From: Eledone cirrhosa
Taxonomy: Eukaryota
Direction of reading: 5' to 3'
Assembly (NCBI GenBank): GCA_964016885.1
Contig: OZ024742.1
Coordinates: 362,886,001-362,950,000, forward strand
Length of the DNA stretch: 64,000 nucleotides
This document shows positions 767-18,969 of this stretch, piece by piece. The notes under the pieces are model-generated. The model was not told the DNA's origin. It saw nothing but the letters and a program-made list of their open reading frames with translations, and made no database searches. Position 1 is the first letter of the stretch. Every line of letters begins with the position of its first letter. The position numbers and the translations under genes were made by a program.

Positions 767-1115
767 AAAAAGAGATGAAATCGAAAATGCAACTGAAGTC
801 TTATTTTTTTAAAAAATATATATATTTATTTGGTTCCTTTACCGGTTTCGCAGTTCTTCTGCTTTACAAAAGGTGAGTTGAGATGGAGGGTCTGTGGTTT
901 TTCTCACATGATGTGAGAAAAACCACAGACCCTCCATCTCAACTCACCTTTTGAAAAGCAGAAGAACTGCGAAACCGGTAAAGGAACCAAATAAATATAT
1001 ATATTTTAAAAAAAAATAAGACTTCAGTTGCATTTTCGATTTCATCTCTTTTTCTTTATACTTCCACTCGTGTAGGACACCTCTGTTATTTTTCATTTTG
1101 TAAAAAAAACCTCAC

Positions 1116-1157
<42 letters not shown>

Positions 1158-1795
1158 GTGAGGTTTTTTTTACAAATTGAAAAATAACCGAGGTGTCCGA
1201 CACGAGTGAAAGTATAAAGAAAAAGAGATGAAATCGAAAATGCAACTGGAGTCTTATTTTTTAAAAAAATATATATATTTATTTGGTTCCTTTACCGGTT
1301 TCGCAGTTCTTCTGCTTTTCAAAAGGTGACTTGAGATGGAGGGTCTGTGGTTTTTCTGACATCTGGTTGGTCTCTGAATGTTACTTATTTTATATGGAAA
1401 AAGTGGCTCGAAATACCAGGTTTTTCTAGAAGTAATTTGATTGGTTTGTCAATAATTATAATAAATTCAAACATTCATATATGATAAAACAACCTGTGAC
1501 AACCCCCCCTCTTATTTGAAGAACCATTGTCACGCGAACTGGCGCGAAATTTATTATAATTATTGACAAACCAATCAAATTATTTCTCGAAAAACCTGGC
1601 ATTTCGAGGCACTTTTTCCATATAAAACAAGTAACATTCAGAGACCAACCAGATGTGAGAAAAACCACAGACCCTCCATCTCAACTCACCTTTTGAAAAG
1701 CAGAAGAACTGCGAAACCGGTAAAGGAACCAAATAAATATATATATCTTTTAAAAAAATAAGACTCCAGTTGCATTTTCGATTTCATCTCTTTTT

Positions 1796-1800
<5 letters not shown>
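761..1800. mobile_element. (TA)n-flanked PLE-end-like repeat (family A) in multiple inverted segments
   Basis: Segments 761-909 and 911-1122 form a hairpin centred at 910. After (TA)n, 1151-1467 folds back into 1468-1800. The same sequence recurs at 8593-9909. Confidence 0.75.
947..984 (+). ncRNA. Minimal type I hammerhead ribozyme, U3-A8 core variant (family A)
   Basis: cctt-TTGAAAA-gcag(aagaa)ctgc-GAAA-CCGG-TA-aagg: stem I, variant core, stem II, palindromic stem III and a GUA triplet. Further copies at 836-873 (-, A6 mutated), 1289-1326 (-), 1689-1726 (+) and 8730-8766 (-). Confidence 0.75.
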
Positions 1801-1856
<56 letters not shown>

Positions 1857-1858
<2 letters not shown>

Positions 1859-2117
1859 TAAAAGAATAGAGGTGTAACACACGAGTTATGATATATTGGT
1901 AAACGGAAAAGAAAATGCTGACAAATTGTTCCCAGTGAAAAATAGTTTAATTAGGAATAAGTAAAAATTAGTATTCAGTTTTGGTTTTAAGTTTTACCTG
2001 TTTGGATTTAAGTTTTACCTGTTTTACTAACCAATACTATTACTAATTTTTACTTATTCCTAATTAAGCTATTTTTCACTGGGAACAATTTGTCAGCATT
2101 TTCTTTTCCGTTTACCA

Positions 2118-2120
<3 letters not shown>
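1857..2120. mobile_element. PLE-end-like repeat family B, short fold-back copy
   Basis: Starts aaagaatagaggtgtaacac as at 3177. 2040-2120 is the reverse complement of 1892-1972. (TA)n on both sides. Confidence 0.7.
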
Positions 2121-2151
<31 letters not shown>

Positions 2152-2258
2152 TTTCAGGTTATCAATAATGTAGTGATAATATAACGTCACGTTAGAGATG
2201 AACAGCGTACGTGTAGGTTTGCTCAACGAGTATAAATTATATTCCGGAGAAAATGTAG

Positions 2259-2478
2259 AAAAGATGAATATAAAATGAAAGTGCTTTTATAAAGGAATTT
2301 ATTAGGTATTGACATATGTTTCTGTAACAGACGGAATACCTATGTATCGCTGCTTGCGTAATCACTGCTTGGGGAATCATGATTACGCAAGCAGCGATAC
2401 ATAGGTATTCCGTCTGTTACAGAAACATATGTCAATACCTAATAAATTCTTTTATAAAAGCACTTTCATTTTATATTC

Positions 2479-2486
<8 letters not shown>
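2259..2486. repeat. ~105-bp-arm inverted repeat with hammerhead remnant
   Basis: Arms 2259-2364 and 2380-2486. The right arm has taggtatt...GAAA-CATATG-TC-aataccta followed by AATAAA, but the CUGANGA core is missing. Confidence 0.7.
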
Positions 2487-2547
<61 letters not shown>

Positions 2548-2555
<8 letters not shown>

Positions 2556-2770
2556 CGTAAAATAAGAAAATTATAAAAATTAACTTACTTACTAAAATTT
2601 CATTCCAACTAGTTAGTTTCTAATTTTTATAATTCTTCTTATTTTACGTCTCTCATATTATTGTTCTGCATCTCCATGCATTGAACCACAAAGTTACTAA
2701 GACAAAACATATATATTTGCTGGCATAGGTATGCATCTGTATATATATGACAGTAGATGTACTAATTCTT
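2548..2770. mobile_element. PLE-end-like family D fragment with fold-back
   Basis: Same sequence as 56538-57250. 2548-2620 is inverted relative to 2621-2770. Confidence 0.7.
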
Positions 2771-2819
2771 TATATATATATATAAATGGTCCACCTGGTT
2801 CCTTACCACTTTTCCTTCG

Positions 2820-2892
<73 letters not shown>

Positions 2893-2897
2893 ATTGG

Positions 2898-2930
<33 letters not shown>

Positions 2931-3022
2931 ATTGGATTCGCAATCGTAAGGTTGTGAGTTCGATTCCTCTATCAGGCGATGCGTTATGTCCTTGAGCAAG
3001 ACACTTTATTTCACGTTGCTCC
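2931..3022 (+). mobile_element. tRNA/CORE-type SINE fragment
   Basis: B-box-like gagttcgattcc followed by the CORE-like gtccttgagcaagacactttatttcacgttgctcc. Confidence 0.65.
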
Positions 3023-3119
3023 TTCTACCTGGAGTTGCGACCGATAGATAGTATTAGCAATTGGAAAGACCAACGGAAACATTGTTCCCTCGGTCCGATT
3101 TTACGAAAGTCGATCGTTC

Positions 3120-3174
<55 letters not shown>

Positions 3175-3177
<3 letters not shown>

Positions 3178-16574: not shown

Positions 16575-16945
16575 TCGAAACATGGCAAGGGCCCCGAAGT
16601 AATTACCATCTTCCCATTCAAAGGAAATAGATCCCTCATCTGGGATGCCACATGTTGTGACACATACTTTGCCTCTAGCTTAATCGCTTCGGCGACAAAC
16701 CTCGGTACTGAGACCCGCATTGCAGAAGTAAGGAAGACGAACAAATACCATGGATTATACGGCCACTTTCTCTTCGCACCGGTCACCGTCGAGACCTTAG
16801 ACGTACTTGGACCCCATACTACCGGTCTTCCCGCAAGATCTGAACGTTAACAGCCCACCTGAGGAAGGAGCCCTGCGTGGTGGCGTGGCTATTGCAGCAG
16901 GTGTCGCTGGCCATTGTCCGTGGAAATGTTTTTGTGGTCTTGTTC
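16575..16945 (+). pseudogene. CRE-clade-like restriction-like endonuclease fragment
   Basis: Methionine-less frame: GKGPEVITIFPFKGNRSLIWDATCCDT...AEVRKTNKY...FAPVTVETLDVLGP, then WLLQQVSLAIVRGN. Confidence 0.75.
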
Positions 16946-17119
16946 ACAGAAGCGCAGCTCCCAAAACGCCACAACCTACGCCCATAGCCCCTCCTCCTCC
17001 CATTCTTCTGTGGCCCGAGAACCCTTGCTTTTCCCTTCCTTTCCTTCTTTAAATCGTTGTAGTATTTTTCGAATTATTTTATAGTCATTCATTCATGTAG
17101 TTACTCCTCTTCATCCTGA

Positions 17120-17395
17120 GAAGGTCGTGGGGACAGAGTCCTCAAACGCTCCTTCCAGCAGGTCCTGTCAGAAGAAACCGTCTCCAACTCATCCGGCTGG
17201 ATCCCAAGCGAAACCAGCCAAGCTCATAGATGTTATCCAACCATCTCGCTAGGGGTCTACCCCTGAGTCTCTTACCGTTTGGTTTTGCCCGTAAAATCTG
17301 TCCAGCGATTCTTTCCTGGGACATTCTAAACACACGGCCATAGTATTGGAGCTGTGATCTCACAATTCGGATAGGTGGCGGCTCTACCTGGAATA
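17120..17395 (-). mobile_element. RTE LINE 3' end (second family)
   Basis: RSQLQYYGRVFRMSQERIAGQILRAKPNGKRLRGRPLARWLD. Same family as 55575-56105. Confidence 0.85.
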
Positions 17396-17502
17396 CTTAT
17401 CGTCGAAATCAACGGAGATCCATGCCACATGCATATTCACACACACACACGTGAGTATTTATGTGTAAATATGTACGCATATGTTTATATGAATACACAC
17501 AT

Positions 17503-17545
<43 letters not shown>

Positions 17546-17555
17546 TTGTAATATA

Positions 17556-17742
17556 ATTGTTTCTACTTTAGGCACAAGGCCAGCAATTACCCAGTGCATT
17601 ACTGGTACTTTATTTTATCGACCCCGTAAGGATGAAAGGCAAAGTCAACCTCGGCGAGATTTGAACTCAGATCGTAAAGGGACGTAACTATGCTGGAAAG
17701 CATGGCGTCCGACCCTCTACCGATACCGCCAATCCACCGCCC
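17556..17742 (-). mobile_element. Full tRNA SINE S1 with target-site duplication
   Basis: Reverse complement of 11228-11411, with gttgtaatataa on both sides. Confidence 0.9.
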
Positions 17743-17868
17743 TGTTGTAATATAAGTTGTAATATAATGAAACGAAATTTCATTTCTCACTCCTAGCACG
17801 GCACTTACTTAAATGTAAGTATGTATGTATACATACATACATATATGTATACAGACGTACAGTAGCAT

Positions 17869-17949
<81 letters not shown>

Positions 17950-17979
17950 CATGCTACTGTACGTCTGTATACATACATA

Positions 17980-18075
<96 letters not shown>

Positions 18076-18238
18076 TAGATAGGTAAATATACATGGGTGT
18101 GTATGATTGTATATAGATTATATTAATAAGAGGAATTCCAACTTTGTCTGATTTACTCGTTTTATTTACAATCCTTTAAAATATATAATGGTATTATAAT
18201 GAAATAGTATGATAGAATATTAAATTCTAACTGTTAAT

Positions 18239-18277
18239 TGAACAAGTACTTTCATGCTTTCGCAATCTTCAGGTTCA
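18239..18277 (-). ncRNA. Minimal type I hammerhead
   Basis: Minus strand: tgaac-CTGAAGA-ttgc(gaaa)gcat-GAAA-GTAC-TT-gttca. Confidence 0.7.
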
Positions 18278-18364
18278 TAATATGTGGTGACAGTCGAGTT
18301 TGCAATTTTCAACTGTATATATATGCAATTGTATATATATGCAATTTTCAACTATATATATATG

Positions 18365-18488
18365 CTTTCCTGATGATTTCTACCGAATGAAACAGTTCTG
18401 GTCCTGTAGAAGCCATTTCTATATTAGATATTTATACTTTGCTATGTTTTGAGTACCCTACTTACTGTGGTTACCCCCGATTGAACCC

Positions 18489-18492
<4 letters not shown>
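18365..18492 (+). mobile_element. Family C PLE end with intact hammerhead (18367-18412)
   Basis: ttc-CTGATGA-tttc(tacc)gaat-GAAA-cag(ttctggtc)ctg-TA-gaa. Confidence 0.75.
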
Positions 18493-18548
<56 letters not shown>

Positions 18549-18549
<1 letters not shown>

Positions 18550-18736
18550 GAGAAAAGGTGACCCCGACGGCGGGGCTCGGGCCGTTTCGACGGCTGTTTC
18601 TGGACTAGAAATAGCAGTCGAGGCGGCTTGAGCTCTGCCGTCGGGGTCATACTTTCTCCTATACCCACTCACTTCCCTAAGTATTGAGTACTCTGGTGCG
18701 TTATGGTCCATCTGGTTCCTTACCACAACTCCTTCG

Positions 18737-18738
<2 letters not shown>
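18549..18738 (+). mobile_element. Family E PLE 3' end with a 41-bp G-U-rich hairpin
   Basis: Stem 18560-18600/18608-18648. The right arm is shared with the end of the PLE at 51285-51342. Confidence 0.75.
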
Positions 18739-18805
<67 letters not shown>

Positions 18806-18933
18806 TAAAGCTATAAGCAGAGTAGAATGGACAGAGGAATGACTTCTCTTCTCTGAATGAACATGTATGTGAACATATTTTTTCTTCCCCTTTTTATTTT
18901 CATTTTCTTCATTATCATTATTATTACTATTAT

Positions 18934-18969
18934 CAATTGACAATGCATTTAATGCTGAAACCGGTATTG
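18934..18969 (+). ncRNA. Minimal hammerhead, U3-A8 variant (family F)
   Basis: caa-TTGACAA-tgcat(tta)atgct-GAAA-CCGG-TA-ttg followed by AATAAA. Confidence 0.65.

Follow-up and report, generated by a model that had tools for sequence, protein, structure and literature searches.

The window analysed here, a stretch of 64,000 nucleotides from the genome of Eledone cirrhosa, contains four (TA)n-associated repeat families (A to D; Table 1), each with a motif that, on sequence grounds, is a type I hammerhead ribozyme in which a U3-A8 pair stands in place of C3-G8 and for which self-cleavage is predicted. All four contexts had been picked out by an earlier sequence-only reading and were located at the positions it gave; of the five family A hammerheads that it counted, four are intact and the core of the minus-strand copy at 836-873 is damaged. 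The canonical hammerhead in Table 1 was absent from that reading.

Table 1. Repeats and hammerhead motifs identified in the window.
Feature	Positions	Strand	Remarks
Family A pLTR fragments in a (TA)n-flanked cluster, 5'-truncated, tandem and inverted	760-1802	.	93-97% to full-length L123
Family A hammerhead, damaged (UUGUAAA, A6U)	836-873	-	
Family A type I hammerhead, U3-A8 (UUGAAAA), palindromic ACCGGU stem III	947-984	+	Predicted cut after 980
Family A hammerhead, intact	1289-1326	-	
Family A hammerhead, intact	1689-1726	+	
Family B PLE 3' end with inverted copy	3167-4279	.	369-bp arms, 100% complementary; 98-99% to full-length L381
Family B hammerhead, U3-A8 and A13C (GCAA)	3335-3371	-	
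Family B hammerhead, U3-A8 and A13C (C at 4114)	4089-4125	+	Predicted cut after 4122
Older family A 3' UTR/pLTR copy, 85%	8565-9333	-	Hammerhead at 8731-8766
Family C 317-bp retrozyme units, partial tandem and inverted, in (TA)n	14337-15278	.	
Family C hammerhead, U3-A8 (UUGAUAA)	14472-14517	-	
Family C hammerhead, interrupted long stem I, CAACAA loop II, 5-bp stem III	15061-15126	+	Core motif 15071-15116; predicted cut after 15112
Canonical C3-G8 hammerhead (CUGAUGA), part of a different short repeat	18366-18412	+	
Family D PLE 3' end with (TA)n tracts on both sides	18808-19057	+	
Family D hammerhead, U3-A8 (UUGACAA), U10.1-U11.1 mismatch	18934-18969	+	Predicted cut after 18966
Decayed retrozyme-type hammerhead with U3-A8, GAGA in place of GAAA	19277-19310	+	Intact relatives exist

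The family A hammerhead reads CCUU UUGAAAA GCAG-agaa-CUGC GAAA CCG GUA AAGG, and its core is UUGAAAA in 47 of 50 aligned rows; the core is UUGAUAA in 51 of 55 rows of family C and UUGANAA in 27 of 32 rows of family D. No row of these three families has CUGANGA, the core that the sequence-only reading had named as refuting its claim if present in family consensus sequences. Families A, C and D all have the type I core (N3-UGAN-N8-A ... GAAA ... UH) with a Watson-Crick 3-8 pair, and stems I-III are in register, with compensatory changes across subfamilies. Stem II of family D is closed by the U10.1-U11.1 mismatch, and the 5-bp stem III of family C has a loop of 3 nt.

Genome-wide searches indicate that U3-A8 is an interchangeable Watson-Crick swap for C3-G8. 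The pattern for U3-A8 with a short stem III, TTGANAAN{8,18}GAAACSSGTH, gave 20,573 matches, compared with 127 for the reversed pattern used as a control, and its C3-G8 counterpart gave 18,994. Mixed combinations (U-G plus C-A) gave 418 matches (control 231) and purine-3/pyrimidine-8 combinations 150 (control 340), in agreement with the compensated pair that had been claimed from the window. A looser pattern with a long stem III gave 3,905 mixed matches (control 1,097), and 8 of the first 100 of these listed belong to a repeat without an in-register stem II. Across all patterns run, U3-A8 was the commoner form (~38,000 versus ~28,000 C3-G8 matches), though a few families dominate these counts and copies are not independent events; the figures bear out the earlier suggestions that such motifs are very numerous and that CUGANGA-based searches miss them. 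Descriptors limited to CUGANGA can thus overlook over half of a genome's hammerhead-like motifs, a shortfall that bears on claims of PLE clades being without ribozymes.

A strict structural scan of 251 sequences from the same genome (1.08 Mb, a set enriched for the repeats under study) found 378 matches and none in the reversed sequences; at the level of clusters (n = 15), six were U-A, six were C-G and none was U-G or C-A. In PLE loci of other organisms, 40 of 130 loci held motifs (distinct ones: 25 C-G, 10 U-A, 1 A-U and 1 U-G), five shuffles of these loci gave two matches, and distinct motifs were biased to the ORF strand, with 37 on the plus and 1 on the minus strand. A GCAA motif in foreign loci L347-L356 was dropped for want of a convincing stem II. 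An Rfam search of the whole window had no hammerhead among the 150 of 217 matches listed; the matches were mostly noise, namely miRNA families matched to inverted and (TA)n repeats. Hammerhead scores in Rfam were all under the gathering threshold (for family C, 22.7 bits and E 0.002 with Hammerhead_HH9, under a gathering score of 52 bits). Minimum free energy folding of monomers returned the hammerhead only for family C and partly for A, and other folds for B and D, and folding z-scores for the four families were weak (-1.75 to +0.10).

By motif match, families A, B and D are assigned as the pseudo-LTR (pLTR) ends of related Penelope-like elements (PLEs) of the EN+ Neptune/Nematis type. The linked RT/EN ORFs whose presence the sequence-only reading had asked about were found for all three, with an RT (GxKF, DKG, YxDD), a CX2-5CxxC linker and, at the C terminus, GIY-YIG with CCHH, which upholds its view that the variant hammerheads mark PLE ends. 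A full-length family A element (L123) has direct pLTRs of 753 bp, 99% identical and 4,977 bp apart, with a hammerhead in both, and a frame with GLKF, DKG, YLDD, a CX4CxxC linker and, at the C terminus, GIY-YIG. Direct hammerhead-bearing pLTRs are present in two family B elements (L381 and L382), those of full-length L381 being 574 bp long, 98.6% identical and each with a GCAA hammerhead. Family D was seen as its 3' end only: in L208/L117 and L180 the hammerhead follows GIY-YIG at 425-816 nt (816 nt in L180). In L031, two copies of family A lie 4.5 kb from each other; they were rejected as pLTRs, as what they enclose is a LINE-type frame within a local duplication.

Similar pLTRs, tandem and inverted truncated copies, the GxKF, DKG, linker and C-terminal GIY-YIG/CCHH motifs and microsatellite targeting are all described for Neptune/Nematis PLEs (Craig 2021, PMC8557442). 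In that account canonical EN+ PLEs have a single ORF, whereas elements of the A/B/D type have two overlapping frames: a 455-aa frame overlaps the 784-aa RT-EN frame in the -1 register at TTTTTTA. The shared overlap at the conserved UUUUUUA heptamer is likely to be a programmed frameshift. Intact 784-aa frames occur in two family B loci (L206 and L400), but no fully intact family B element was found, none of 23 regions retrieved having both frames whole.

In a quick EN-region tree (midpoint-rooted without an outside root; 49 of 76 rows, 27 near-duplicate or short rows having been dropped), A, B and D fall on one side of a branch with 100% SH-aLRT support and a C3-G8 family on the other. Since these three form one lineage, they count as one origin rather than three; the relationship suspected between A and B thus extends to D, and what had been read as four distinct contexts amounts to two origins of U3-A8 here, one in the PLE lineage and one in the retrozyme lineage of family C.

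Family C has, as judged from its sequence, the make-up of an ORF-less tandem retrozyme: its 317-bp unit falls in the 170-400-bp range of non-LTR retrozymes, has one hammerhead per unit and occurs as dimers, and a sister subfamily forms a six-unit array. It aligns at 69% with a canonical 310-bp retrozyme, and homologous subfamilies carry either UUGAUAA (C, L181, L225) or CUGANGA (the 310-bp unit, L006, L094); this swap between close homologs provides evolutionary support for the 3-8 tertiary pair. No linked PLE ORF or autonomous partner was present in three of three nine-kb loci, and a PLE fragment in L210/L047 was rejected as a partner because it looks like a nested neighbour. Mobilisation of family C by PLEs such as these is likely.

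The anatomy, ORF linkage, copy counts and covariation, each observed directly, make it highly probable that A, B and D are PLE pLTR ends, that C is an ORF-less repeat likely mobilised by them, and that each carries a type I hammerhead with a U-A 3-8 pair, predicted to self-cleave the element RNA. Hammerheads with U3-A8 are active in vitro (Perreault 2011, PMC3088659). Stem III of A, B and D, a 2-bp palindrome (ACCGGU), would form between two hammerheads, and cleavage would therefore require a dimer from tandem pLTRs or assistance from the element's protein; hammerheads of PLEs are active as dimers or when a protein assists (PMC11167929). The RNA released by cutting would be of unit length, with its start ~170-190 nt upstream of the first ATG. 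The stable 5-bp stem III of family C, with its canonical stem I and loop II, would allow monomers to cut and possibly to circularise. For insertion into (TA)n, target-primed reverse transcription would begin ~90-160 nt downstream of the cut site, which would produce the truncated, tandem and inverted copies observed. U3-A8 would have been fixed once in the A/B/D ancestor, and U3-A8 and C3-G8 would have switched separately among retrozyme subfamilies.

Family B lacks the invariant A13 of type I hammerheads. The sequence-only reading had called its GAAA mutated, but GCAA is a fixed family trait and no defect of one copy, being present in 10,160 exact copies in the genome versus 118 with other letters. 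Those 118 have A, G or T and occur dispersed through the two subfamilies, which gives them the look of later mutations; an older GAAA subfamily was rejected on these grounds, and a small revertant group may be among them. A13 variants may already be listed by Lunse 2017. Changes at A13 cost 10-100-fold (PMC4075628, citing Nelson & Uhlenbeck), and A13C in this family is likely to denote a weakened ribozyme rather than a dead one. At somewhat less than even odds, family B was very active recently with a hammerhead twice off consensus (U3-A8 and A13C) yet constrained since: it would be a new functional, protein-assisted core variant, or a natural experiment in which a PLE reached more than 10,000 copies although its ribozyme was crippled. 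In this clade a conserved programmed -1 frameshift (U UUU UUA) would, on the same reading, separate ORF1 from RT-EN, contrary to the single-ORF description of EN+ PLEs.

It is unlikely, by comparison, that the motifs, those of family B above all, no longer cut and persist as a structure bound by PLE proteins or as pLTR hitch-hikers in elements that move without self-cleavage. A fixed change at a conserved position in so abundant a family, whose top 40 copies are 100% identical over 361 bp and retain GCAA, would fit such a state, as would the anole PLE, in which cleavage was dispensable in vitro (hammerhead mutants left insertion unaffected and the cut site was not the end of any read; PMC11167929), and the Naiads, which are described as thriving without canonical hammerheads (PMC8557442). 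Loss of cutting is harder to reconcile with covariation of a catalytic-core pair across families, or with contigs of separate runs, where 19 substitution rows lie in family B flanks as against zero at 4073-4142. Old and young family B subfamilies also differ at 0 of 33 hammerhead versus 16 of 161 flanking positions (one-sided Fisher p = 0.044), a comparison biased by the choice of rows by motif. Families A and B, sisters with A13 and C13 respectively, are each young and abundant and constitute a matched natural pair for asking whether PLE hammerheads must cut for the element to move.

The proposal that the variant hammerheads are a mark of Naiad/Chlamys PLEs and account for the apparent absence of ribozymes there is highly improbable. 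These elements share (TA)n targeting, and Craig 2021 used relaxed descriptors and a 'cuganga' core string, which would miss UUGANAA, but (TA)n bias is described for Neptune and Hydra as well (PMC8557442), and every linked ORF found for A, B and D has RT first, GIY-YIG last and DKG, rather than an N-terminal nuclease and DKA, which refutes the link for these three families; true Naiads may still carry U3-A8. It is barely conceivable that AT-rich repeats yielded hammerhead-like strings by chance and amplified them with the repeat. UUGAAAA is AT-rich, thousands of copies can descend from a single founder motif and the folding z-scores are weak, but chance would leave unexplained the 3-8 covariation, the compensatory changes in stems I-III, the same position of the motif in pLTRs of unrelated elements, the empty reversed scan and the ORF-strand bias in foreign loci.

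Although the sequence-only reading proposed a widespread variant-ribozyme class, U3-A8 hammerheads are already known, so no new ribozyme class is involved: Cervera & De la Pena 2014 report them in the Cercyon PLE of Schistosoma mansoni, with UUGAUAA and UUGAAAA cores in the supplement (PMC4209133), and Perreault 2011 reports natural examples (PMC3088659). Cercyon PLEs also resemble A, B and D in having a type I hammerhead in both pLTRs, a palindromic stem III, a predicted dimer and mostly solo, truncated copies; the differences are ~38,000 matches here against ~1,300 there, a 2-bp palindromic stem III without counterpart in the Cercyon description, a PLE clade with a Zn-linker and the A13C of family B (PMC4209133). 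The variants of Perreault 2011 include both U3-A8 covariation and the U10.1-U11.1 mismatch of family D, and the text of its core-variant section names no A13 substitution (PMC3088659). What is likely new is the scale of U3-A8 in Eledone cirrhosa and a young family in which ~10,000 copies have one more change in the core, probably cutting itself more weakly. Published non-LTR retrozymes share with family C the ORF-less tandem units with a type I hammerhead each and coexistence with PLEs, while family C differs in its stable stem III and in U3-A8, which does not occur in the descriptions consulted of those retrozymes (PMC7229834; Li et al. 2026 preprint, 10.64898/2026.07.22.740005).

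Across the families whose rows were compared, the U3-A8 hammerhead core (UUGANAA, as against the canonical C3-G8 core CUGANGA; positions follow the standard convention) is a family-level state. UUGAAAA is found in 47 of 50 family A rows (42 directly, plus 5 of a shorter-loop subfamily that were off-register in automated reading and are counted as UUGAAAA), the variant core occurs in 51 of 55 family C and 27 of 32 family D rows, and none of the rows of these three families contains CUGANGA. Re-inspection of the window placed all four motif contexts where the sequence-only reading had put them; of the five family A copies claimed there, four are intact and the fifth has a damaged core, and two further hammerheads had been overlooked (see table). 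The family C motif gave a weak match to Rfam Hammerhead_HH9 (22.7 bits, E 0.002).

Hammerheads and other features of the window and of Penelope-like element (PLE) loci
Feature	Position or locus	Strand	Core or remark
Family A hammerhead, intact	947-984	+	U3-A8
Family A hammerhead, intact	1689-1726	+	U3-A8
Family A hammerhead, intact	1289-1326	minus	U3-A8
Family A hammerhead, intact	8731-8766	minus	U3-A8
Family A hammerhead	836-873	minus	damaged, UUGUAAA
Family B hammerhead	4089-4125	+	GCAA
Family B hammerhead, inverted copy	3335-3371	minus	GCAA
Family C hammerhead (317-bp unit)	15071-15116	+
Family C hammerhead (317-bp unit)	14472-14517	minus
Family D hammerhead	18934-18969	+	stem II closed by U-U mismatch
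Overlooked hammerhead	18366-18412		canonical C3-G8
Overlooked hammerhead, decayed	19277		U3-A8
(TA)n-flanked short repeat	18366-18547, 5561-5824, 49542-49792		canonical C3-G8, long stem III
21/23-bp satellite (23-kb array) plus 49-bp satellite	25110-48533, 57761-64000		49-bp satellite extends past window end
ORF1 / RT-EN overlap example	L386, 1128-2492 / 2426 onward
Two-frame PLE rows	L381, L404, L206, L400, L129, L132, L142; foreign contigs L251, L252, L255, L262, L328

The genome-wide check proposed for 3/8 covariation bore it out. A short-stem-III pattern with both positions free had 40,990 matches in the 3.0-Gb genome (control 1,401), and these copy counts, which are not independent events, include 20,573 for U3-A8 (control 127) and 18,994 for C3-G8 (control 118), against 418 for U-G and C-A together (the remainder from 39,985) and 150 for purine-3/pyrimidine-8, fewer than its control (340). 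A looser long-stem-III pattern returned 7,253 U-A (control 707), 9,453 C-G (control 158) and 3,905 mixed matches (control 1,097), and, among the first 100 mixed rows, 8 belong to a repeat that has no stem II in register. Strict scanning of 251 stored sequences, whose reversed controls gave no matches, yielded 15 clusters (6 U-A, 6 C-G and 3 small others), none of them U-G or C-A.

Family C is a young ORF-less unit, its top matches being 99-100% identical; the exact motif has 473 copies, the first 100 listed all UUGAUAA, arranged as partial tandems and inversions inside (TA)n, and a sister subfamily occurs as an array of six units. Alignment of family C with the canonical 310-bp tandem retrozyme of this genome gives 69% over 423 nt, and the six homologous retrozyme subfamilies divide into U-A (C, L181, L225) and C-G (310-bp, L006, L094) with no mixed member. 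The retrozymes represent a second origin of the C-G/U-A swap, and the cleanest covariation evidence. The 310-bp retrozyme (CUGA(U/A)GA), homologous to family C, forms long arrays with one head-to-head inversion (G000:C1:1239857-1244284 and many other sites, L068-L081) and predominates in the first 100 rows listed for the 18,994 C3-G8 matches.

Families A, B and D were linked to PLE ORFs by a GIY-YIG search of the genome and loci fetched around the matches. Like the full-length family A element L123, the family B element L381 is full-length, with 574-bp pseudo-LTRs (pLTRs) of 98.6% identity; intact 784-aa RT-EN frames of this family occur at L206 and L400, and D-type hammerheads lie 425-816 nt downstream of GIY-YIG frames. 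By the definitions available in Craig 2021 (PMC8557442), the architecture of these PLEs is that of Neptune/Nematis, not of Naiad or Chlamys, to which the variant hammerheads had been tentatively linked. In a quick tree (49/76 rows), A, B and D fall together, with a C3-G8 family on the far side of a 100% branch, and pLTR alignments between A and B give 72-74%, in keeping with the relationship already suspected between these two families. Because of this split and alignment, the simplest reading is that U3-A8 arose once in A/B/D, so the four contexts, offered as distinct, would reduce to two origins, this lineage and the retrozymes. Copies terminate in (TA)n at preferred distances past the predicted cut (A 140-149 nt, 23/44; B 110-129, 35/69; D 90-99, 11/24). 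In a C3-G8 PLE family (L126, L127, L131, L136, L122), the hammerhead reads GAAA-GUA-CUU and sits ~385 nt past the ORF; its stem III is minimal or absent.

The U3-A8 hammerheads had been put forward as a ribozyme class missed by CUGANGA-based searches, but the variant is in print: for Cercyon PLEs (~1,300 matches), the consulted portions of Cervera & De la Pena 2014 (PMC4209133) give 'U3-A8 instead of C3-G8', and the supplement lists the cores UUGAUAA and UUGAAAA, as in this genome; Perreault 2011 (PMC3088659) lists natural U3-A8 and a U10.1-U11.1 mismatch like that of family D. The hammerheads here are therefore an unusually large set of an already described kind, and what remains new is U3-A8 retrozymes, A13C fixed in young family B and, as a side observation, a conserved -1 overlap.

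In family B the exact motif has GCAA in 10,160 copies versus G, A or T there in 118, and the 40 best copies match the window at 100% identity across 361 bp. Differences between old and young subfamilies affect 16/161 flanking versus 0/33 hammerhead positions (p = 0.044, biased by row selection), and among contigs of separate runs the substitution rows number 19 for the flanks versus 0 at 4073-4142. A13 changes are given a 10-100-fold cost in the relevant part of PMC4075628; literature searches for hammerhead A13C/A13 or a GCAA hammerhead in Penelope met no report of this among the records listed. A very abundant lookalike, TGAAGAT(A/G)GGGAAGGCAACCGGTC (L383, G000:C1:51334-51357, minus), was rejected as a GCAA hammerhead, having no stem II and no Rfam match; its sequence looks like a coding stretch from a different repeat.

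Among PLE-protein relatives on foreign metagenome and contaminated-MAG (metagenome-assembled genome) contigs, 40 of 130 loci carry ORF-strand hammerheads (five shuffles, 2 matches), the distinct motifs being 25 C-G, 10 U-A, 1 A-U and 1 U-G, with most U-A motifs from one assembly. The A3-U8 core is at L323:3131 and the U3-G8 wobble at L309/L310 of the same assembly. Animal-type PLEs occur in many prokaryotic MAG records (L327-L380), likely through host contamination.

Each of the two pLTRs contains the hammerhead, which lies upstream of the first ATG, and this position, the covariation and the insertion pattern are the observed part of the proposed mechanism. Drawing on the literature, short-stem-III motifs would cleave as dimers or with protein assistance (Cervera 2014, PMC4209133; Frangieh 2024, PMC11167929), family C may cleave as a monomer and form circles (PMC7229834), and reverse transcription would start internally (Frangieh 2024). 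This cleavage scheme is weakened because minimum-energy folds of B and D monomers are not hammerheads and because cleavage was dispensable in vitro for an anole PLE in the sections consulted of Frangieh 2024.

These PLEs have two overlapping frames, a ~455-aa ORF1 and the 784-aa RT-EN, in -1 register. Literature searches found no paper combining Penelope, ribosomal frameshift and GIY-YIG; in Craig 2021 (PMC8557442), the legend to Fig. 1 includes an optional frameshifted ORF1, with no clade given for it in the text. A TTTTTTA heptamer marks the junction in 9/11 B rows (an extra T occurs in the other 2, which are one locus), 2/3 A rows, D-like L142 and foreign L251, L252 and L255; no strong hairpin was found downstream of it. 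The heptamer is likely a site of programmed -1 ribosomal frameshifting, and foreign L262 and L328 have the same frame overlap.
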